Part shown: positions 452 through 11,905 of the stretch, piece after piece
Layout: each line of letters starts with the position of its first letter
Position numbering within the stretch: position 1 is the first letter of the stretch
Assembly: GCA_934613415.1 (NCBI GenBank)
Contig: CAKTSY010000001.1
Span: forward strand, 330,001 to 362,000
Source of the DNA: an uncultured Opitutales bacterium
Lineage (GTDB): Bacteria; Verrucomicrobiota; Verrucomicrobiia; Opitutales; Intestinicryptomonadaceae
DNA: 32,000 nt
Direction: 5' to 3'
The notes under the pieces: model-generated
What the model was told of the DNA's origin: nothing
Seen by the model: the letters and a program-made list of their open reading frames with translations, nothing else
Databases searched by the model: none
Position numbers and translations under genes: made by a program

Positions 452-2638
452 TTAAAAAAGCTCCATCTGTTCGGGCGCACAATTTTCGGGCTTTAAGCCG
501 CCTAAAAACTCCGAATATCTTTTAATCCAATCGTTTAGCTTGTCTAAATAATAGCTTTTCGAATAGGGATAATTTTTTGCGTCGTACAATTCAACGGGGC
601 GCGCGTTTTTCCAGTCGGGCTGGCGTTTTTGCGATTCGGTTATGTAGTAGGAAACCTTTTCGCCCGTATGCGGGGGCACAGCAAGCATTAACGCCGCCTG
701 ATACGCCGCCCTTTTTGGCTTTTTATTTGTTTGCACTTCCTTTAAATAGTTAGCAAGCGAGCCCGTTAAATATTCCGACTTTGCCAAAAGCGAAATATCG
801 CACTTGCCGCTTTTAATCTTTTCGGTAAAGTCGGCTACAATGCTTTTCATATCGCCCTTTTTAGCGCCAAGCATTATCGACACAAAGTCGCTTGTAAGCA
901 TTCGCAAAAACGGCTCCATTGCCCTGCTCTTTAACGCCGAACCCTTAACGGATATTTTGCCGCTTTCGCCATCTAGCAAGGCATAGTTTTTTGCCTTGTA
1001 GCAAAACATTGCGCCAAAGCTGCCGTCGTGCTCTAAGCTTACGCCTTCGGGCAAAACATTGCGCGAAGATTCCAAAAGCTTTTCGGGATTTGCAAAATAT
1101 TCGCGGCTGGAAAGGTAAATACCGTCGGTATCTACCTCTAATATAAGGCAGCCTTTGGCTTTAAAAAGAGCAATTAAGTCGCCCAACAAACGCCTGCCAG
1201 TAGACGTAATTTTGTCTGCCAAGGCGCAGTCGCCAAAGCGCGCGCTAGAAAGCCCCAAATATCCGTAAAACGAGTTTATCAAAATCTTGTAGCTTTTTTG
1301 GCGCGCGTCGTATTCGGTTTTTAGGTCTTTGTCGGAGCTTTCTTTTGCAAGTTTTTTATATTTTAGCCTATATTGCCTAAGCTCGGCCAAGCTGGTTAAA
1401 AAAACATTCAGATAGTCGTTTGCAGGAGGCGTGTTTAGCGAAAGCAGCAAGCTTGGGTATAGCGACGCGATGTCGTAGTGCAAAACGTCCTTAAAAACGC
1501 CTTTTTCAAAAATCTCCGACATCGCCCCCGATATATAGCTTTGCTGCGCCATATCGGGCAACTTTGCCGAAGCCGAATAATATTTTTCAAGCAACAACGC
1601 CTCTACCTTTACGCCCGAACCCCTAAGCATACACTCTTGAAATGTCATCGGGAAATTTGCACACTGTGCAAAATAGGTGGGCAACAATAAATCGGCCAAA
1701 CCTTTTGTTTCGCGCAGGTCGTCTAAAAGGTATTTTCTAAAGCTTTCTTTGTCGGTGCGAAAGGCGTCTTTTATATGCGCGCCTTCTATGTAGGTTCTTT
1801 GTGTTTCTTTGCTAATGCCGAAATATAAGGCTGCGTTTTTAAGCGAATACGATTCCAACTCGCGCTTGGAAACGTCGAACATTTGCAGCAAAATGTAGGT
1901 GTCGGCAACGCTGCGCCCCGCAATGTCGAATCGGGGGAAATCGAATGTGCGCTCGGCAATGCTTACCCTGCTTTTGCGCATTTTTACAGAGCCATCGAAC
2001 CTGCCCCATAGGGGCTTTACTTTTAAAAGTTTGCACCTTTTATACAAATAGTCCAAATCGAACTTAAATATATTATGGCCTTCTATTACGTCGGGGTCGA
2101 ACTCAGCAAAGGCATCGTTTAGGTCGCTTAAAAGTTTGCGCTCGGCGTTGTCAGAAAATTCGGATAGCTCTAAAATTTTTGTCTTGCCGTTGCACGAAAT
2201 GCCTATCGCCAAAACCCTGTCTAGCGGGTTTTCGGGGTTCGAAAAGTCGCCCGTGCAGTCGGTTTCAATATCAAGCTGCATACGGCGCAACTGCGAAAAT
2301 TTCATACCCGAAAAAAACCTTGCGCAATTTTCGGTTAAAAACTGGTTTTCTAAATTCGCCAGCCTAAAAGACGAATATTTGTTGTCCTTTAAAAACGCTT
2401 CGTAGTGCCTTATGTTGTCGAAACTTGCTTGGGTGTCTAAATAGGAATTTACGGGACCTTGCAAAGGCTGCATTTTTGCGTTTTGTAGGTTAATTGCATC
2501 TTTTGCGTTTACCCACAAAAATGGGGCAAAGCCCGCTTTGCCGTAGGCGCGCGAACCGTCGGGGTTTGCCGTGCAAATTTCGGCAATGCCTTGCGGCGAA
2601 ATATAAATTCCGCACAGATTTTCGATTGGAGCGTTCAT
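452..2638 (-). CDS. polB: Family B DNA polymerase (Pol II-like) with 3'-5' exonuclease domain
   Basis: 728-aa ORF with ExoI LDIETD, ExoII NIFKFDLDYL, motif A DIASLYPS, motif B KILINSFYGYLG and motif C LEVDTDGIY. Confidence 0.9.
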   Translation of the reverse strand: MNAPIENLCGIYISPQGIAEICTANPDGSRAYGKAGFAPFLWVNAKDAINLQNAKMQPLQGPVNSYLDTQASFDNIRHYEAFLKDNKYSSFRLANLENQFLTENCARFFSGMKFSQLRRMQLDIETDCTGDFSNPENPLDRVLAIGISCNGKTKILELSEFSDNAERKLLSDLNDAFAEFDPDVIEGHNIFKFDLDYLYKRCKLLKVKPLWGRFDGSVKMRKSRVSIAERTFDFPRFDIAGRSVADTYILLQMFDVSKRELESYSLKNAALYFGISKETQRTYIEGAHIKDAFRTDKESFRKYLLDDLRETKGLADLLLPTYFAQCANFPMTFQECMLRGSGVKVEALLLEKYYSASAKLPDMAQQSYISGAMSEIFEKGVFKDVLHYDIASLYPSLLLSLNTPPANDYLNVFLTSLAELRQYRLKYKKLAKESSDKDLKTEYDARQKSYKILINSFYGYLGLSSARFGDCALADKITSTGRRLLGDLIALFKAKGCLILEVDTDGIYLSSREYFANPEKLLESSRNVLPEGVSLEHDGSFGAMFCYKAKNYALLDGESGKISVKGSALKSRAMEPFLRMLTSDFVSIMLGAKKGDMKSIVADFTEKIKSGKCDISLLAKSEYLTGSLANYLKEVQTNKKPKRAAYQAALMLAVPPHTGEKVSYYITESQKRQPDWKNARPVELYDAKNYPYSKSYYLDKLNDWIKRYSEFLGGLKPENCAPEQMELF

Positions 2639-6632: not shown

Positions 6633-6667
6633 AAAAACCTTTCGGAATACGAAAGGTTTTTTTGTTT
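6633..6667. terminator. Bidirectional intrinsic terminator shared by hpf (+) and the AT-rich cassette operon (-)
   Basis: 12-bp stem AAAAACCTTTCG (6633-6644) / CGAAAGGTTTTT (6650-6661) with a 5-nt loop. T-runs follow on both strands. Confidence 0.8.
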
Positions 6668-6735
6668 GATGGGAGGGGGACATAATTCTATGGAAAATAT
6701 ATAAACACACATCCTCGCATGCCAAATGTATCGTA

Positions 6736-8493
6736 TTAGATATCTATTCTAATAGTCTCTTCATCTCTATTTTGAAGCAAGATGAATTTATTTTCATCAG
6801 AACAATCTACTGTACCCCTATAGAAACGACTTGCATCCTTTATAATTGGATATTCCTTCTTATATTTAGAGTATCCGTCATTGCTGATAACTGCAGAATT
6901 TTCTTTCGTACTCGCCTTTTCCAAAACTAATATATCGGCCCGAAATGGAGCCTGAGAATAATGCCTTTTATCTTTTATCATTTCTTCATATAAATTTTTA
7001 TCATCTTCAGATTTTAATATGTGAGGACTTTGGATATCAAAAAAAACTTTATAGTCTAAGTCATGTTCTTGCAGGTAATCTACTATCTTTTGTATATAGA
7101 ATAGAGTCGGAATTTTATCCCCATTCCAATACATCATATTTGTACCATCCAAAATAAATAAACTTCTTTTCTTTATGTTTCTTTGCGCCGATAAGGATTT
7201 AGTTGCATTCTTAACCTTAGCAGGTTGACTGTCATCCACTGAATGCCGCCCAAAGTTGTTTGTATCAACTATTGGAAAAATATCCGCATCGTCTGATATA
7301 GGCCGCCAACGACTCTGCTTATCAATTGGCGCTATACGAGGCTTAGGAGGCATTGGAGGGATTGAAATTGGAGAGGAATTTTGCTTCGAAGAAGATTTAT
7401 CTACAGATTTAAGCTCAACCGCTTGATTATCATTCCCAGTCGACGGACATAATTCATTTTCAGCAACAACAGGAACAACGTCAACATCGTCTGCTACGCT
7501 ATGCAAATTTCTCTGCCCATCAATTGGTGATATACGACGTTTAGATGGGAAAACATACTTGGGAGTTGGTACTGTAACAGAAATATTCTTCTTATCATTA
7601 TCCTTTTCGTTAATTTTTGGTTCAGATAATGGTTTATGAATTATTTCATCCAAAAAACCAGGAACTTCGCGTTCTTCGATATTTTTTTGCCGATATAAAG
7701 GCTTAATAGTAGATTTAGAAGGAATAGGCAAAACACCATCTGCAGACTCATATTCTAACTCGATGCCAACGTCATTTTCATGCTTATTTGTATAATAATC
7801 TTTGATAATTTCCTGTGCCGACGAAAGATTCGCCACGCTAAATGAGTCCTGCAAAATGTTTTTTACAGATTCACGTTTTACCCTAGAAACAAAAGTATTA
7901 GGGGCTTCATTGTAATCTTCTATAATCTTTTCACAAACGCTTGCTGAAACAAAATTCCATTTCTTATCCGTAAAATAATTTTTATGTATATAATTAAAAA
8001 AACTATTCGTATTTACATGGTTTTCTGGAAGTTTCAAAAGTTTTGTTTGTATATCTCGAATATAAATATAGGATACAAACTCATCTGAGTATTTATAACA
8101 TATTCTATATTTTTTAGCCCATTCGTCGTATTTTCCGAAAATAAAGCGTGATTTTTCGCTATCAAATCTTCCGTTTTCTTTTTCTTCCATTTCTGCAATA
8201 TCTGGATTATCTTTGAGAAATGCACAATAATATACTCTCGGAGAAATGGCGCATCCTTTCATTATATCTATTGTAGTAAAAAAATCCCTGCAATACCTTG
8301 AGCCATACACCGTTTTATAAGCGTATATTAATCTATGACACATAAATGAATCTGGCGCATTAGAAAACAAGGATAATTCTTTAAAGTTAAAGAAGGGAAG
8401 ACCACTCCTTCCAGTTAATATTTCTACCATTCTCTCATAGTCCCCCCCTGGGACGAGATCTATTACTCTATTTACATAAACATTGTATATCAT
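6736..8493 (-). CDS. 585-aa protein: unknown N-terminal domain, repeat-containing linker, C-terminal Zc3h12a/NYN-like (PIN-fold) ribonuclease domain
   Basis: C-terminal ~130 aa (nt 6769-7164) carry SLFILDGTNMMYW, YKVFFD, RADILVLEKA and AVISNDGYSKY, matching the DGSN / SND acidic signature of Zc3h12a-type NYN RNases. The ATG lies 9 nt after the upstream stop. Confidence 0.75.
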   Translation of the reverse strand: MIYNVYVNRVIDLVPGGDYERMVEILTGRSGLPFFNFKELSLFSNAPDSFMCHRLIYAYKTVYGSRYCRDFFTTIDIMKGCAISPRVYYCAFLKDNPDIAEMEEKENGRFDSEKSRFIFGKYDEWAKKYRICYKYSDEFVSYIYIRDIQTKLLKLPENHVNTNSFFNYIHKNYFTDKKWNFVSASVCEKIIEDYNEAPNTFVSRVKRESVKNILQDSFSVANLSSAQEIIKDYYTNKHENDVGIELEYESADGVLPIPSKSTIKPLYRQKNIEEREVPGFLDEIIHKPLSEPKINEKDNDKKNISVTVPTPKYVFPSKRRISPIDGQRNLHSVADDVDVVPVVAENELCPSTGNDNQAVELKSVDKSSSKQNSSPISIPPMPPKPRIAPIDKQSRWRPISDDADIFPIVDTNNFGRHSVDDSQPAKVKNATKSLSAQRNIKKRSLFILDGTNMMYWNGDKIPTLFYIQKIVDYLQEHDLDYKVFFDIQSPHILKSEDDKNLYEEMIKDKRHYSQAPFRADILVLEKASTKENSAVISNDGYSKYKKEYPIIKDASRFYRGTVDCSDENKFILLQNRDEETIRIDI

Positions 8494-8502
8494 AACAAAA
8501 AA

Positions 8503-9039
8503 TTATATAACTTTATTGTACTCACGATAAAAAGATGATACAAAATTATCATCTATAAAATCCGGCTTGGGAATCAGTAGCATTGGTTGCGATGTATCTT
8601 CTTTTTTCGCAGAATCACTATACGTTTTATATGAACCGTGCTCACATGTACCCCGACAGCTCCCTTCGCAATCCCCATAACAACCGTGTTCACAATCTCC
8701 TTTGCAACTTCCCTCACAAGAACTATAGCAACCATTCCGACAACTACCCCGACAACTCCCTTCGCAATCTCCTTTGCAAGTACCATTACAAGAGCTATAA
8801 CAACCATTAAGGCAATTACCTTTGCATGTTTGGTAGCAACTAGAATAGCATCCCATACTGCAACTGCCATGGCAACTACTGCTACAGTGCCCTCTACAAC
8901 TTCCAAAACATTCGCCGGAACAACTTCCATAGCAATATCTGTTCTCAAATGGTTTCACAATATAAGAGCGAGTTTCAAGATTCTCGTATTTCTCAATGTA
9001 AGAAATAAGCTTTAAATCATCTTCTGTTAAATCTATCAT
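8503..9039 (-). CDS. 178-aa cysteine-periodic protein (25 x CX3C), presumed substrate of the adjacent radical SAM/SPASM enzyme
   Basis: Longest ORF filling the whole gap between the rSAM and NYN genes. Its ATG (9039) lies 1 nt after the rSAM stop (9041-9043). Cys occurs at residues 36, 40, 44 ... 132 with no register break. Confidence 0.85.
   Translation of the reverse strand: MIDLTEDDLKLISYIEKYENLETRSYIVKPFENRYCYGSCSGECFGSCRGHCSSSCHGSCSMGCYSSCYQTCKGNCLNGCYSSCNGTCKGDCEGSCRGSCRNGCYSSCEGSCKGDCEHGCYGDCEGSCRGTCEHGSYKTYSDSAKKEDTSQPMLLIPKPDFIDDNFVSSFYREYNKVI
8644..8934 (-). repeat. Coding 12-nt (4-codon) periodic array: 25 Cys codons at exact i,i+4 spacing with a 16-residue super-repeat
   Basis: YGSC SGEC FGSC RGHC SSSC HGSC SMGC YSSC YQTC KGNC LNGC YSSC NGTC KGDC EGSC RGSC RNGC YSSC EGSC KGDC EHGC YGDC EGSC RGTC. 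DNA near-duplicate 8651-8676 vs 8747-8772 (24/26 identical, 96 nt apart). Confidence 0.95.
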
Positions 9040-9040
9040 A

Positions 9041-10150
9041 TTATTTTACTTGGTTAAAAATTTGCTTGTTTAATTTTTTTATATTTTTTACACCGCATAT
9101 TTCTTCTGCAGACAGCTGTTTTCCTTGCATAATTTTTCTCTTTACCAATTCAATATGTAAGTATGCAACTACTTCCATTTGTATTTTAAACAATCTACAA
9201 GAGCATTTGTCTCGTTTGGAAATGTCTCCTCTATCTTTAAAATTAAATCCGTAGCATGTCGGGCATATATCAACGTACGAACATGATAGACATTCTTCGG
9301 AAGTAAAACTCGCGTTTTTTAATTCCCTTTTAACTGATTCAGGCATTTTGCGCCCCAATACAACCGAAGTGAACATATGACATGGATACGATGCCCCATC
9401 TACATCGTAGGCAATCATGTTCTTTCCACTACCACAATACTTCCTGTGCTCATGCATACAATCAACGTAAATCAATTTATTATCAAATAAATTGCATATG
9501 CTTATATCGGGATTTTGTATATAAAAATTCGATATTTTAAGCAACTCGCTTCTGAAGCACAAATAATCCTCTTCACTCCAATATTGCCCAAAAGAACATG
9601 TTGCTATGAATTCATAGCCGTTTTTGTGCAAAGAAATTATGTCTTCCGACAAACTCTTTACCGAATATGGAGATATAGTTACCTTCAAAGGTTGAAATGG
9701 ATATAAATTGAAAAAATAATCTATATCAATGACATCGTTTTTTGTTCTATTAACTTCCTGTGAAAACTTGCCATCATAGCTAATACCAACGACAAATATA
9801 GATTTGTTCTCTTCTAAATATTCTTTTATTTCGTTGTTTATGAGAGTCGCGTTTGTGGTGGCAAAAAATATATACGGAACATTTGGATTTTTACCAACAA
9901 CGTAGCTTATAATCTTTTTTATTAAATCAAACGAGCAAAAAGGTTCTCCCCCCATAAAATCAAATTCAATTTCGTCAAAATCTTTAGAATTTTCTACAAA
10001 CTTGAATTCATCATCAATAATACGTTTTGCTGTATCAAAATCCATTTCGCGATTGGATTTGAATTTTTCATAACAATAGCAACAGTTAAGATTACACTTG
10101 TGAGTTATAACCAGTGTGCAAATGCGTCTTCTTGTGTTTCCTTTTTCCAT
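9041..10150 (-). CDS. Radical SAM enzyme with C-terminal SPASM (auxiliary 4Fe-4S) domain, anSME/QhpD-like architecture
   Basis: C19-x3-C23-x2-C26 (CNLNCCYC) and GGEP SAM motif. SPASM-type C239-x12-G-x4-C257, C287-x2-C-x5-C-x2-C299 and C316/C318. Confidence 0.92.
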   Translation of the reverse strand: MEKGNTRRRICTLVITHKCNLNCCYCYEKFKSNREMDFDTAKRIIDDEFKFVENSKDFDEIEFDFMGGEPFCSFDLIKKIISYVVGKNPNVPYIFFATTNATLINNEIKEYLEENKSIFVVGISYDGKFSQEVNRTKNDVIDIDYFFNLYPFQPLKVTISPYSVKSLSEDIISLHKNGYEFIATCSFGQYWSEEDYLCFRSELLKISNFYIQNPDISICNLFDNKLIYVDCMHEHRKYCGSGKNMIAYDVDGASYPCHMFTSVVLGRKMPESVKRELKNASFTSEECLSCSYVDICPTCYGFNFKDRGDISKRDKCSCRLFKIQMEVVAYLHIELVKRKIMQGKQLSAEEICGVKNIKKLNKQIFNQVK

Positions 10151-10424
10151 ATATGAGAACTATTCCTAAAAAATAAGCTACCTATAAAAGGCTAGCATTT
10201 GTTTATACAGATATAAACACCCATGAAATATAGAGGGAATCTATACCCCCCAGTATTTCATGATCTCAAAATTAAAACGCACTTATGAAAATATTCGGGT
10301 AAGGATTATCGTACAATAAGTACGCTCCAAAACCTAAATGCTTTCATCGGCAACACATATTACCGCTTTGTTTCATTAAAAAACAATAAAACGATAATAA
10401 CTCAAATTCGATACAGAACTCTAA

Positions 10425-10688
10425 CTAAAACTTTAACGTTTGAAAATCACTATAGCCATTATTTAGCCACTCACCTTCATAACATATTCTTAAAGAAGAC
10501 TTATGGTTAAAGTTGTATATCGCAGTACCTACAATGTTTTTTATACACTCCTCTTGTTTGTCTTTCCCTTCAGAGAATGTAGCATTTCTCCTTATTGCGC
10601 CACTCAAAAATCCCTGAAATTCTTTAATTCCTTCTTCTCTTTTTTCCTTTTTTGTTAATTCTTTCATTCGTAATTTGTATTTTTCCAT
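10425..10688 (-). CDS. Hypothetical 87-aa protein (no recognisable domain), first ORF downstream of the palindrome-bracketed segment
   Basis: AT-rich ORF on the same strand as the cassette with a lysine/glutamate-rich N-terminus. No motif recognised. Confidence 0.45.
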   Translation of the reverse strand: MEKYKLRMKELTKKEKREEGIKEFQGFLSGAIRRNATFSEGKDKQEECIKNIVGTAIYNFNHKSSLRICYEGEWLNNGYSDFQTLKF

Positions 10689-10722
10689 TTATAAGAACGG
10701 CTTATAAACTATGTCTGCGAGT

Positions 10723-10741
10723 ATGGTATTTAGAATACCAT
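10723..10741. repeat. 19-bp palindromic site, copy 1 (ATGGTATTTAGAATACCAT)
   Basis: 8-3-8 palindrome. Exact reverse complement of the copy at 10890-10908. Confidence 0.9.
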
Positions 10742-10838
10742 ATGCTGCAAAATTTATGCAATACCCTGATAATCAGACAAAAATATTTATTGGGATATTG
10801 ATTCTTTAAAAGACTATCCTTGAAATAGAAATCCTTGA

Positions 10839-10891
10839 ATTGTCAACAAACCAAACGGTACAAAAGTTTTTTGGATTTTGTTGTTGACAAT
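10839..10891. repeat. Nested 11-bp inverted repeat ATTGTCAACAA / TTGTTGACAAT with 31-nt spacer
   Basis: Arms at 10839-10849 and 10881-10891. The right arm abuts/overlaps 19-bp site copy 2. Contains a TTGACA hexamer (10884-10889). Confidence 0.8.
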
Positions 10892-10908
10892 GGTATTCTA
10901 AATACCAT
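10890..10908. repeat. 19-bp palindromic site, copy 2 (ATGGTATTCTAAATACCAT), inverted relative to copy 1
   Basis: Exact reverse complement of 10723-10741. Includes the recombinase ATG at 10907. Confidence 0.9.
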
Positions 10909-11905
10909 GAACAATGAATTGATATCGGCGAGAGCTCTTTTAAGGGGCAAAAACATTAGCGTGTTAGATGCAGCTAGGCTTATTTGCAATATTGCAGATT
11001 TTATGCCAAAAAAATCTAAACTTACTACCCTTCAGTTTTGCGCCAAAGTAATTGAAATTGGCAAAAATAACTTTAGGCAAAACAAAATGCCTATCGCCAA
11101 AGGCTTTGATATTTATTTGCAGACTAAGCAAGATTTGCGCAAAGCTTCGTTTAGCGACATTAAATATTTGGGCAATAAGTTGTTAAAACTTAAGCCAGAA
11201 TTTGCAAAACGCAATTTCTCGGAGTTTAGTGTATCGGAATGCGAAGAGTGGCTAAGCTGCACGTTTAGCACCCCAAGCCAATACAACAAAGGGCGCGCTA
11301 TGTTGCATGCCTTTTTTGAATTTGCTCTTCGCTACGAGTGGTGTGATAAAAATCCCATTAAACAAATTTTAAGAAAAAAGGTAATAGAAAAAGAAATTTT
11401 GCCGCTAAAGCTACGCGAAATTAAAAGAATTATAGCCAATGCTAAAAAGGAGAATAACGGCATATATTTGCCTGCCGTAGCCCTATTGGTCTTTGCGGGA
11501 ATACGCCCGCGCGAAGTTAGGCGTTTAACTTGGCAAGATATTGATTTGCAGGAAAACACAATAACGGTACGCTCGCTGTGTTCTAAAACAGGCGGGGTGC
11601 GCCAAGTAGAAATTATGCCGCAACTAAAGCGAATTTTGCTAAGCTATAACCCGCAACTCCAGCAAAAAATATGCCCTGTAAACTGGCAGCGGCGTTGGCA
11701 AAAAATACGCAACAATTCGGGCTTTAGCGGTTGCTGGGTTCAGGACGTTTTGCGCCATACTTTTGCCAGCTTTTTTGCCAAACGTTTTAAAGATTTGCCG
11801 CGGTTGCAGCTAAATATGGGCCATAGCAACCAAATGCTCCTGCGAAGCCGCTACATAAACATGCGCAACATCTCCCGCCTAGAAGCCGAAATGTTTTTCA
11901 ACTAA
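10907..11905 (+). CDS. Tyrosine recombinase / phage-integrase family protein
   Basis: AGIRPREVRRLTWQDIDL (Arg box), VLRHTFASFF (box II), MGHSN and a terminal RSRYINM tyrosine. ATG 10907 is chosen; the track's TTG at 10835 would add 24 aa and cannot be excluded. Confidence 0.85.
   Translation: MNNELISARALLRGKNISVLDAARLICNIADFMPKKSKLTTLQFCAKVIEIGKNNFRQNKMPIAKGFDIYLQTKQDLRKASFSDIKYLGNKLLKLKPEFAKRNFSEFSVSECEEWLSCTFSTPSQYNKGRAMLHAFFEFALRYEWCDKNPIKQILRKKVIEKEILPLKLREIKRIIANAKKENNGIYLPAVALLVFAGIRPREVRRLTWQDIDLQENTITVRSLCSKTGGVRQVEIMPQLKRILLSYNPQLQQKICPVNWQRRWQKIRNNSGFSGCWVQDVLRHTFASFFAKRFKDLPRLQLNMGHSNQMLLRSRYINMRNISRLEAEMFFN

Follow-up and report, generated by a model that had tools for sequence, protein, structure and literature searches.

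The CXXX-repeat radical SAM target system was reportedly defined in silico by Haft and Basu in 2011. A literature search carried out in the current study found no description or experimental study of any CXXX system, the targets having previously been catalogued in silico only. Target proteins are covered by the model TIGR04114 (tSAM_targ_Cxxx), which is also in Pfam as PF27846 ('tSAM_targ_Cxxx_rpt'), and the enzymes by TIGR04115 (rSAM_Cxxx_rpt); a third, accessory component, the 'CXXX repeat peptide modification system protein', is covered by TIGR04116. The locus described here lies within a window of 32,000 nt (the whole stretch of DNA that was analysed; see Table 1), and shares with this system the presence of Cys at every fourth residue, Gly-rich spacers and an adjoining radical SAM (rSAM)/SPASM maturase. 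It differs in that the canonical targets examined have an N-terminal domain about 110 aa long and a phage-like or tail-fibre setting, compared to a leader of about 35 aa in the clade of the 369-aa rSAM enzyme found here. The partner enzyme is also different, its identity to a true TIGR04115 member (which scores 456 bits) being only 25%.

Several other maturase systems offer points of comparison. QhpD is an rSAM/SPASM enzyme that puts several Cys thioethers into a protein-sized substrate, QhpC (the small subunit of quinohemoprotein amine dehydrogenase), which is kept in a protein assembly; QhpC lacks a repeat array, and the CXXX locus lacks dehydrogenase genes. SCIFF precursors are about 45 aa in length and have six Cys in another motif, while the present target has 178 aa and 25 Cys, and its enzyme is below the cutoff of the SCIFF maturase model (TIGR03974: 85.4 bits vs 425). 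CteB, the maturase of the SCIFF peptide CteA, is nevertheless the best solved-structure match of the 369-aa enzyme (PDB 5wgg, E = 1e-19), and the SPASM cysteine patterns of the two can be aligned. The alignment extends over CteB residues 97 – 448 only, as the N-terminal RRE domain is absent from the 369-aa enzyme. In sactipeptides, a Cys-bearing half is linked to the C-alpha of a Cys-free acceptor half (hairpin), and the maturase has an RRE. Here the comparison points both ways: an acceptor half free of Cys is absent from precursors of the CXXX clade (tail of median 6 aa) and an RRE from the 369-aa enzyme, while a tolerance for Gly at each spacer position would fit a C-alpha linkage. The best-scoring curated family is PapB, which acts on PapA (freyrasin, a ranthipeptide, the class with thioethers from Cys S to a non-alpha carbon) and is likewise a short rSAM/SPASM enzyme with no long N-terminal extension. 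PapB is a single enzyme dealing with many tandem Cys-containing repeats of one precursor (cf. PMC9413430), PapA having six CX3D motifs. The 178-aa protein has 25 units, and the CX3D rule of PapB is inapplicable to it because the residue at +4 after each core Cys is always Cys.

Table 1. Features of the CXXX locus and its surroundings (positions in the window)
Feature	Position (nt)	Strand	Remarks
Bidirectional terminator-like hairpin	6633..6661	.	closes operon; 12-bp stem, T-runs on both strands
Low-GC island holding whole module	6700..11250	.	30-38% GC vs 43-50% in flanks
585-aa protein	6736..8493	-	co-oriented; starts 9 nt after CXXX gene
Strain-variable cassette	7237..10210	.	rSAM, CXXX gene, N-terminal two thirds of 585-aa gene
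CXXX-repeat target protein, 178 aa + stop	8503..9039	-	TIGR04114 match; frame supported by strain substitutions
C-terminal tail, residues 133-178	8506..8643	-	Cys-free
Core, residues 36-132	8644..8934	-	25 Cys, strict 4-residue period
Leader region, residues 1-35	8935..9039	-	acidic, amphipathic, Cys-free
Radical SAM/SPASM peptide maturase, 369 aa	9041..10150	-	Pfam Radical_SAM, Fer4_12
87-aa ORF upstream of rSAM	10425..10688	-	gene status uncertain; no homologues
Tyrosine recombinase, phage-integrase family	10835..11905	+	divergent from operon; PF00589, phrog_1

A long-form CXXX-repeat target protein

The 178-aa ORF represents a genuine gene, encoding a long-form member of the CXXX-repeat radical SAM target family. 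It passes TIGR04114 with 43.1 bits (cutoff 20, E = 3e-11), and the only other NCBIfam matches at E ≤ 1 are TIGR04117, a Syntrophobotulus-type CXXX paralog family that is not passed (22.4 bits vs cutoff 50), and TIGR04333. The ACGX-repeat family, which the earlier note had used for comparison, gave no match at this threshold. The same note suggested a different motif class, a view that is not supported, as the protein fits a curated model: the repeat type is already catalogued, and the 25-repeat form with a 46-aa tail is an unusual variant of it. A known precursor family with the same gene neighbours was therefore found only in part, as TIGR04114 matches the protein but the neighbouring rSAM/SPASM enzyme fails the paired model TIGR04115 (109.8 bits vs cutoff 350).

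Translation places Cys at residues 36, 40 and so on to 132, all 24 intervals being of four residues, just as had been described from the first reading. A chance origin of this periodicity is excluded. The longest period-4 Cys run obtained in 100,000 shuffles of the protein was 7, and a six-frame scan of the window gave no such run longer than 3 outside the array. Cys accounts for 26% of core residues (TGT 13, TGC 12). Gly occupies +2 in 15 of the 24 units (62%, vs 59% in related precursors of the enzyme clade, where spacer composition is alike), Tyr is the leading residue at +1 (6/24), and position +3 is mostly Ser, Thr or Gly, with D/E in four units. The proposed 16-residue super-repeat occurs exactly at residues 61 – 76, 77 – 92 and 101 – 116, but is weak as a global super-period: lag-4-unit identity is 0.33, compared with 0.237 ± 0.045 when the units are shuffled (p ~0.03, with no correction for the 12 lags). 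By eye, the tail is without a hydrophobic stretch of membrane-helix length. A single-sequence AF2 model shows a helical hairpin, which at pLDDT 52 is unreliable and too poor for a fold search.

That the period is maintained at the protein level, and does not stem from a recent DNA expansion, agrees with the absence of any tandem array in the core DNA according to TRF, and with the age and divergence of the repeats that are present. The latter are more numerous than the one 26-nt near-duplicate first reported, and include 69 nt at 78% identity (nt 8680 – 8748 vs 8752 – 8820) and 56 nt at 77% (nt 8628 – 8683 vs 8724 – 8779); copies spaced 48 nt apart are 62 – 63% identical.

A different frame, nt 8574 – 8948, had been named in the earlier note as one that might be translated instead. 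If this +1 shadow ORF (118 – 124 aa, Val/Ala-rich) were the true gene, the Cys period would be a by-product, and it is indeed the frame called on most of the 21 contigs that carry the locus, despite identical DNA. The strain substitutions count against it. All three of those seen in strain L003 fall at third codon positions of the CXXX frame, where they are silent, and all three are non-synonymous in the shadow frame. Moreover, the shadow ORF sits entirely within the repeat and has no family matches, and equivalent shadow ORFs lie over unrelated CXXX genes, while it is the CXXX frame that is conserved across phyla. It is thus extremely unlikely that the shadow ORF is the gene, and nt 8503 – 9039 can be taken as the genuine coding frame; it begins 1 nt past the rSAM stop codon and ends 9 nt ahead of the 585-aa gene. 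Annotations of such loci should be treated with caution, as gene callers systematically prefer the Val/Ala-rich shadow frame and also shorten the rSAM start (334 aa in the public call of the present enzyme, the full ORF starting at nt 10150), and the CXXX family is therefore mostly missing from protein databases. A protein search with the 178-aa sequence gave six weak matches, limited to the repeat region, while DNA-level inspection of enzyme neighbourhoods produced precursors by the dozen. An exhaustive search of representatives gave 525 matches, which cover the Cys core only and are uninformative for orthology.

The adjoining enzyme and its pairing with CXXX peptides

The 369-aa rSAM carries a CX3CX2C motif (C19/C23/C26) and a SPASM region with seven Cys that are invariant across its clade. 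Its best NCBIfam match is PapB (NF047865, 123.9 bits, below the cutoff of 340), and QhpD (TIGR03906) is also not passed (70 bits vs 453). Ten relatives within the clade fail TIGR04115 as well, and the enzyme belongs to an uncurated sister clade, no curated model being passed. With scores under all curated cutoffs, transfer of function to the enzyme is weak. PADLOC gave only weak viperin-type (pVip) matches in the window, directed at the generic rSAM core.

Homologues of the enzyme (32 – 49% identity) were recovered from 80 loci, and 58 of these have a CXXX ORF on the same strand, no more than 2.3 kb away and with four or more CXXX units in succession. The loci come from Verrucomicrobiota, Lentisphaerota, Bacteroidota, Bacillota and other groups. 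Since canonical TIGR04115 enzymes also adjoin CXXX proteins, the link between such arrays and rSAM enzymes recurs in two distant clades. The view that the 178-aa protein is the substrate of the adjoining rSAM/SPASM enzyme is upheld, and rated almost certain. This second enzyme clade pairing with CXXX peptides is large, with hundreds of uncurated homologues in several phyla, mostly of gut and rumen bacteria. A metagenome scan using an alignment of the closest subclade mostly recovered more distant enzymes (32 – 36% identity), and CXXX ORFs were seen in only 11 of 82 loci of the metagenome and viral sets combined. A scan of viral contigs with the clade alignment gave two loci only, so the clade is not typically phage-borne.

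Precursors of the clade have a leader of about 35 aa (median 35 before the first Cys) and 4 – 18 repeats; their medians are 65 aa and 6.5 Cys, with a tail of median 6 aa and at most 20. TIGR04114 is passed by 5 of the 8 that were tested. The 178-aa protein has a leader of equal length, but with its 25 repeats and tail of 46 aa it is far larger than these precursors, as originally claimed. The claim does not extend to all known relatives, as its size is not unique: canonical CXXX proteins of 204 – 451 aa occur, and locus L091 encodes a homologue of 209 aa with 37 Cys (45% identity over 133 aa, E = 9e-30), next to an rSAM that is 48% identical to the 369-aa enzyme. The start of the tail is kept between the two (CEHGSYKTYSD in the 178-aa protein, CENGLYKGYSD in the 209-aa protein). 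L091 also has a 143-aa CXXX protein with a C-terminal membrane helix, and phage tail-fibre-like proteins (L179) contain related arrays that can reach hundreds of residues. Aligned by eye, the 178-aa leader fits the family pattern D-L-x-x-L...Y, but an HMM built from 58 family leaders gave it no score among 574 six-frame segments. The likeness is therefore limited to equal length and a similar pattern, and homology of the leaders is not claimed.

Probable chemistry and fate of the product

The best overall explanation, to which we give somewhat better than even chances, is that the protein is a long-form CXXX target that undergoes leader-guided Cys cross-linking by the adjoining maturase. The CXXX gene would share a transcript with the rSAM gene upstream of it, and translation of the two is probably coupled. 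The maturase may recognise the 35-residue leader, which in an enzyme that has no RRE domain would have to occur directly, and may then move along the array, the Cys thiols being donors for radical-mediated intramolecular cross-links. These would most probably be thioethers like those formed by PapB and CteB, the nearest characterised relatives, and the resulting small protein would be rigid and dense in cross-links. By analogy with such enzymes, leader-guided, Cys-based thioether cross-linking appears the most likely mechanism, and it is consistent with the nature of the best curated matches of the rSAM (PapB, SCIFF maturase, QhpD), all of which are thioether formers. All three spacer positions tolerate Gly, so that a link placed identically in each unit would need the C-alpha (sactionine-like); alternatively, only some units may be linked. 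The absence of a conserved acceptor residue from the CXXX spacers counts against the proposed cross-linking.

Other rSAM chemistries have been considered, such as Cys oxidation of the anaerobic sulfatase maturase type, epimerisation, methylation, or C-C cross-linking that starts at position +1 with its many Tyr residues. The failure of the enzyme at every curated thioether-maturase cutoff would allow for these, as would its size and RRE-less layout, which are common to several SPASM enzymes, and the lead taken by Tyr at +1 in this protein. Across the family, however, Tyr occupies +1 in only 8% of units and the invariant feature is Cys, and the nearest characterised relatives by score are those that form thioethers, which makes such chemistry improbable. 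Similarly unlikely is that the array is a metal- or Fe-S-binding Cys ladder (metallothionein-like, or a redox buffer), with the rSAM modifying a few sites or serving elsewhere. A core so rich in Cys, with variable Gly/Ser-rich spacers, does suit a ligand array better than an acceptor code, and array length across CXXX proteins, from 4 to more than 140 units, is as expected of a modular binding repeat. Against this, the arrays repeatedly adjoin enzymes of the peptide-maturase rSAM/SPASM type in the two distant clades, the precursors are built of a leader of fixed length and a core, and the island holds no metal-handling genes.

The fate of the product raises a further alternative, that of a conventional RiPP, secreted as a bacteriocin or signal, from which the leader is removed and the cross-linked core exported. 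In Akkermansia relatives the precursor is accompanied by a further rSAM as well as by an ABC exporter and a Clp-type protease, and an ABC ATPase gene lies downstream of the rSAM in L090 and L091. This reading is very doubtful for the present locus, as the island has no exporter or peptidase gene, in contrast to the Akkermansia relatives, cores of 97 – 143 aa are far larger than those of typical RiPPs, and the long forms have tails, with even a membrane helix in one case (see above). The preferred product of cross-linking, given an island that is without exporter or leader peptidase, is expected to be a cell-associated protein and not a released small antibiotic, and it may work with the downstream 585-aa NYN-like protein.

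In its strongest form, with about one cross-link for each of the 25 CXXX units, cross-linking would give a protein-sized poly-thioether 'ladder', an architecture not yet described; we regard this as rather unlikely. Taken with the related arrays in phage tail-fibre-like proteins and with the integrase-borne, strain-variable nature of the present island, such a ladder would represent a rigid, protease-proof structural or conflict module, as opposed to a diffusible antibiotic. At this locus it might serve as a gate for, or a partner of, the NYN-like nuclease encoded downstream. A protein covalently laddered at each unit would be of interest to peptide and protein engineering. The locus provides a tractable substrate, a 25-repeat protein encoded 1 nt after its enzyme, and the chemistry is therefore directly accessible by co-expression and mass spectrometry.

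Neighbouring genes and strain variation

Downstream, the 585-aa protein consists of a helical N-domain and a Pro-rich linker, followed by about 160 C-terminal residues that are weakly NYN/Zc3h12a-RNase-like. The last 166 aa match PF11977 (E = 0.0044), but weakly, the 17.2 bits falling short of the gathering score (23). Taken whole, the protein has no match in Pfam, NCBIfam, PADLOC or PHROG, no homologues beyond its species and no relative in the PDB; an AF2 model from a two-sequence alignment was unusable (pLDDT 36). An accessory CXXX modification protein was sought among the neighbours, and neither the 585-aa protein nor the 87-aa ORF has an NCBIfam match at E ≤ 1. The 87-aa ORF is followed by a hairpin at nt 10231 – 10252. 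Rfam and tRNA scans of the window gave nothing.

The cassette that carries the rSAM, the CXXX gene and most of the 585-aa gene is swapped for about 1.2 kb in other strains. Sequences L086 and L088 match the window at 96 – 97% over nt 10398 – 10211 and nt 7236 – 5432, with no match in between. They border a replacement that reaches into the 585-aa gene, of which there is a 421-aa allele with an N-domain only 31% identical and a C-terminal region that is essentially identical. An invertible promoter at the divergent integrase was considered and rejected, as no convincing inverted repeats flank the intergenic region (nt 10150 – 10835). Homologues of the recombinase (33 – 37% identity) are found in the same divergent position by rSAM homologues in Akkermansia (L010, L011, L045 and L055). 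The source host of the window is a gut Opitutales bacterium, and the island is integrase-flanked.

Cysteine array, reading frame and family assignment

The 25 cysteines of the 178-aa CXXX-repeat protein lie between residues 36 and 132 (nt 8644–8934), and in the translation all 24 intervals are exactly 4 residues, as the earlier note had claimed. Chance does not account for such an array: 100,000 shuffles of the protein gave period-4 Cys runs of at most 7, and elsewhere in the six-frame translation of the window no run exceeds 3. Gly is found at +2 in 15 of the 24 units, while +3 is Ser, Gly, Thr or Asp. The 16-residue unit described in the same note recurs exactly at residues 61–76, 77–92 and 101–116, but a 16-residue super-period across the whole array is marginal (lag-4-unit identity 0.33 vs 0.237 ± 0.045, p ~0.03 uncorrected). 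Cys codons are indeed mixed (13 TGT, 12 TGC). TRF reported no tandem array in the DNA of the core, and a gap-free repeat search recovered old, diverged copies of 69 nt (78%) and 56 nt (77%), with further copies at 48-nt spacing (62–63%). The array therefore grew via ancient 16-residue duplications and is now kept at the protein level; the latter had been proposed before, but the accompanying statement that only one 26-nt near-duplicate exists does not hold, given the 69-nt and 56-nt copies.

At least 21 public contigs from gut metagenomes carry the DNA of this locus. For most of these the gene caller picked a Val/Ala-rich +1-frame ORF of 118 aa (e.g. contigs L084 and L085) despite identical DNA, and the exact 178-aa sequence is absent from a collection of 15 billion proteins, though the ORF was called on three contigs. 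The CXXX frame is favoured over this shadow frame, which had been raised as the possible translated one, because the substitutions of strain L003 at ORF nt 150, 177 and 192 are all synonymous in the CXXX frame (3/3) and non-synonymous in the other, because the 178-aa ORF starts 1 nt past the stop of the radical SAM (rSAM) gene and ends 9 nt ahead of the next gene, because no shadow ORF has a family match, and because the Cys frame is conserved across phyla, similar shadow ORFs having been miscalled across unrelated CXXX genes in L091 and on the viral contig L179. The 178-aa ORF is thus a real gene, and gene callers systematically prefer the Val/Ala-rich frame at CXXX-repeat genes, which explains why a protein-level homologue search was nearly empty. 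Public annotations usually start the rSAM protein at Met36 (~10045; P0007, 334 aa, 18 contigs), so that it loses the CX3CX2C motif; the correct ORF is the one of 369 aa.

The protein is a member of a catalogued repeat class. It scores 43.1 bits (cutoff 20) against the NCBIfam repeat model TIGR04114 (tSAM_targ_Cxxx), and 22 bits, below the cutoff of 50, against TIGR04117. The current Pfam entry for the same repeat, PF27846 (tSAM_targ_Cxxx_rpt), is known here from precomputed labels on related proteins, as a direct Pfam search with the 178-aa protein gave no match. Since the class was already catalogued, the motif does not form a class of its own as had been supposed, nor did the NCBIfam search return a family resembling ACGX, with which it had been compared. 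What stands of the first interpretation is an unusually long protein that is almost certainly an rSAM substrate. A literature search found no experimental paper on the class.

Coordinates of features in the window and at comparison loci (L numbers)
Feature	Location	Strand	Remark
CXXX-repeat protein, 178 aa	8503–9039	-	ORF translation
Radical SAM/SPASM protein, 369 aa	9041–10150	-	Pfam Radical_SAM, Fer4_12
87-aa ORF upstream of rSAM	10425–10688	-	no homologue, no family match
Tyrosine recombinase, divergent from operon	10835–11905	+	flanks operon
Bidirectional terminator closing operon	6633–6661		
Shadow-frame calls over CXXX genes	window 8574–8948; L084 2564–2920; L085 1822–2178; L091 774–1727; L179 6257–7354	window -	public gene calls
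CXXX-type array + rSAM loci	L179 5986–8968; L177 3099–5047		
Bacteroidales ~115-aa lipoprotein	L028, L030, L033 7150–7509; L048 7457–7798; L060 1672–2028; L076 7242–7580		

The maturase clade and its precursors

The 369-aa enzyme carries CX3CX2C at C19/C23/C26 and, in its SPASM region, 7 cysteines conserved without exception in 30 relatives. Among solved structures it is closest to the thioether synthase CteB (5wgg, E = 1e-19); since the alignment is confined to CteB residues 97–448, the enzyme has no RRE domain. The best curated models were PapB (124 bits, cutoff 340) and TIGR04115 (110 bits, cutoff 350), followed by the nif11, CcpM, SCIFF and QhpD maturases, all far under cutoff, as was also the case for 10 relatives. 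A bona fide TIGR04115 enzyme (L177, 456 bits) shares only 25% identity with it. These scores place the enzyme in a probable sister clade, as yet uncurated, of the PapB and TIGR04115 families.

The database holds 299 homologues at E ≤ 1e-10, and a genome scan gave 80 loci (32–48% identity) in Akkermansia and other Verrucomicrobiota, Lentisphaerota/Victivallales, Kiritimatiellales, Selenomonadaceae, Bacteroidales, Heliobacterium, Sporomusa and others. A small CXXX ORF (same strand, not more than 2.3 kb away, at least 4 consecutive units) accompanies the enzyme in 58 of the 80, and 5 of 8 clade precursors tested pass TIGR04114. The CXXX gene of the window is tightly coupled to its rSAM/SPASM maturase, an enzyme type associated with such precursors clade-wide. 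Remoter enzymes (32–36% identity) mostly have no CXXX neighbours: of 82 loci from metagenomes and viruses, just 11 have them.

Precursors at the 58 loci have medians of 65 aa, 6.5 Cys (maximum 20), 35 residues ahead of the first Cys and a 6-residue tail. Their spacers have Gly at +2 in 59%, and Ser (34%), Thr (16%) or Gly (15%) at +3, with which the window protein agrees; it shares the 35-residue leader length and core composition of the family. By-eye alignment fits its leader to the family pattern D-L-x-x-L...Y, and a leader HMM gives it no score. With 25 repeats and a 46-aa tail it is an outlier, and the claim that its 178 aa lie well above the usual precursor size is confirmed by these medians. 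The long form is not unique: the enzyme P0013 of L091, 48% identical to the window rSAM, is adjoined by two long CXXX proteins of ~143 and ~209 aa, the latter with 37 Cys and a 133-aa stretch 45% identical to the window protein (E = 9e-30), a match that extends into the tail (...GTCE(H/N)G(S/L)YK(T/G)YSD...). At its C-terminus the ~143-aa protein (L091 548–1099) has a hydrophobic segment resembling a membrane helix, CCVVFMLITAGLIAAVSGVIVYL, which hints that some long forms may be tail-anchored.

In Bacteroidales loci a ~115-aa lipoprotein with a weak DUF7895 match lies between rSAM and precursor, and DnaJ-like CxxCxGxG zinc-finger repeats were recognised in it by eye. Akkermansia L010 (7550–10986) has a second rSAM paralogue, a fused ABC exporter and a Clp-family protease 3' of the precursor; unlike such Akkermansia clusters, the window island lacks all three.

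Larger arrays and possible chemistry

In the canonical CXXX system, P0006 (204 aa) carries its CXXX array behind a ~110-aa N-terminal domain, and the P0006 gene overlaps by 4 nt the end of the gene for a 445-aa TIGR04115 enzyme. A 451-aa relative, of which ~340 residues form a Cys-rich CXXX-type array, is encoded amid tail-fibre-like genes on the IMG/VR viral contig L179 (IMGVR_UViG_3300033463_000610), followed by a 94-aa ORF and a 435-aa TIGR04115-type rSAM (58% identity to the L177 enzyme). This contig suggests that phages use rSAM-matured Cys arrays as structural modules. In an exhaustive representative search, arrays reached 142 consecutive CXXX units and proteins 1,800 aa; together with the short precursors, this indicates that CXXX arrays are both domains of big proteins and short leader-core peptides. 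They are associated with two distant rSAM clades.

By analogy with CteB, the rSAM would bind the leader and the Cys thiolates would be the donors of radical cross-links. One ligand of auxiliary cluster I in CteB is a substrate Cys, and the 7 invariant SPASM-region cysteines of the window enzyme are compatible with such a mechanism. PapB acts on six tandem motifs, and the window enzyme might likewise work repeatedly along the array. The CX3D rule of PapB is impossible here, and a classical sactipeptide hairpin would lack its Cys-free acceptor half. Gly is tolerated at +1, +2 and +3 across the precursor family, so that a cross-link at a fixed position in each unit would need a C-alpha target. 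Alternatively, the array may bind metal or Fe-S without cross-links, or the rSAM may carry out other chemistry. The repeat kind itself is known, though uncharacterised; new here are a long-form CXXX target, an uncurated maturase clade as its partner, and a strain-variable, integrase-flanked island.

A strain-variable island

The operon lies in a low-GC island (~6700–11250; 30–38% G+C vs 43–50% in the flanks), set between housekeeping genes (adk, ymdB, gpsA, an SDR and a hibernation-factor gene, then genes for GDPD and a Cache sensor). Housekeeping proteins encoded in the window cluster at ≥90% identity with proteins labelled as from an 'Opitutales bacterium' MAG. Also amid the housekeeping genes, nt 452–2638 (minus strand) encode a 728-aa family-B DNA polymerase. 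Homologues of the recombinase (33–37% identity) are likewise divergent upstream of rSAM homologues in Akkermansia L010 (4687–5688), L011, L045 and L055. A search of the intergenic region beside the window recombinase gave no inverted repeats that would suggest an invertible promoter. Between the 87-aa ORF and the rSAM start is a G-rich hairpin with a T-tract (10231–10252); the ORF itself may encode a small regulator or represent a non-coding leader instead.

Downstream of the CXXX gene, the full 585-aa protein has no match in Pfam, NCBIfam, PADLOC or PHROGs, and no homologues were found outside its own species. Its C-terminal 166 aa (6736–7236, minus strand) weakly match the Zc3h12a-like NYN RNases (E = 0.0044, 17.2 bits, gathering score 23). 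A protein narrowly above the Pfam NYN threshold (24.6 vs 24.2 bits) follows a 47%-identical rSAM in L093 (2477–3244); it does not align with the 585-aa protein and is unrelated to it. An NYN protein follows the rSAM in L094 also, with HTH and ORF6N genes nearby in these loci. NYN proteins may recur beside the rSAM-CXXX cassette, and such neighbours hint at a mobile or conflict setting, any functional link being conjectural.

In other strains (L086, L087 and L088), with flanks 96–97% identical, nt 7237–10210 of the window (the rSAM and CXXX genes together with the part of the 585-aa gene that encodes its N-terminal two thirds) are replaced by ~1.2 kb encoding a 55-aa hydrophobic ORF and a 421-aa allele, the N-domain of which is 31% identical and the C-terminal region essentially identical. 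This replacement identifies the rSAM-CXXX pair as an accessory, strain-variable cassette.
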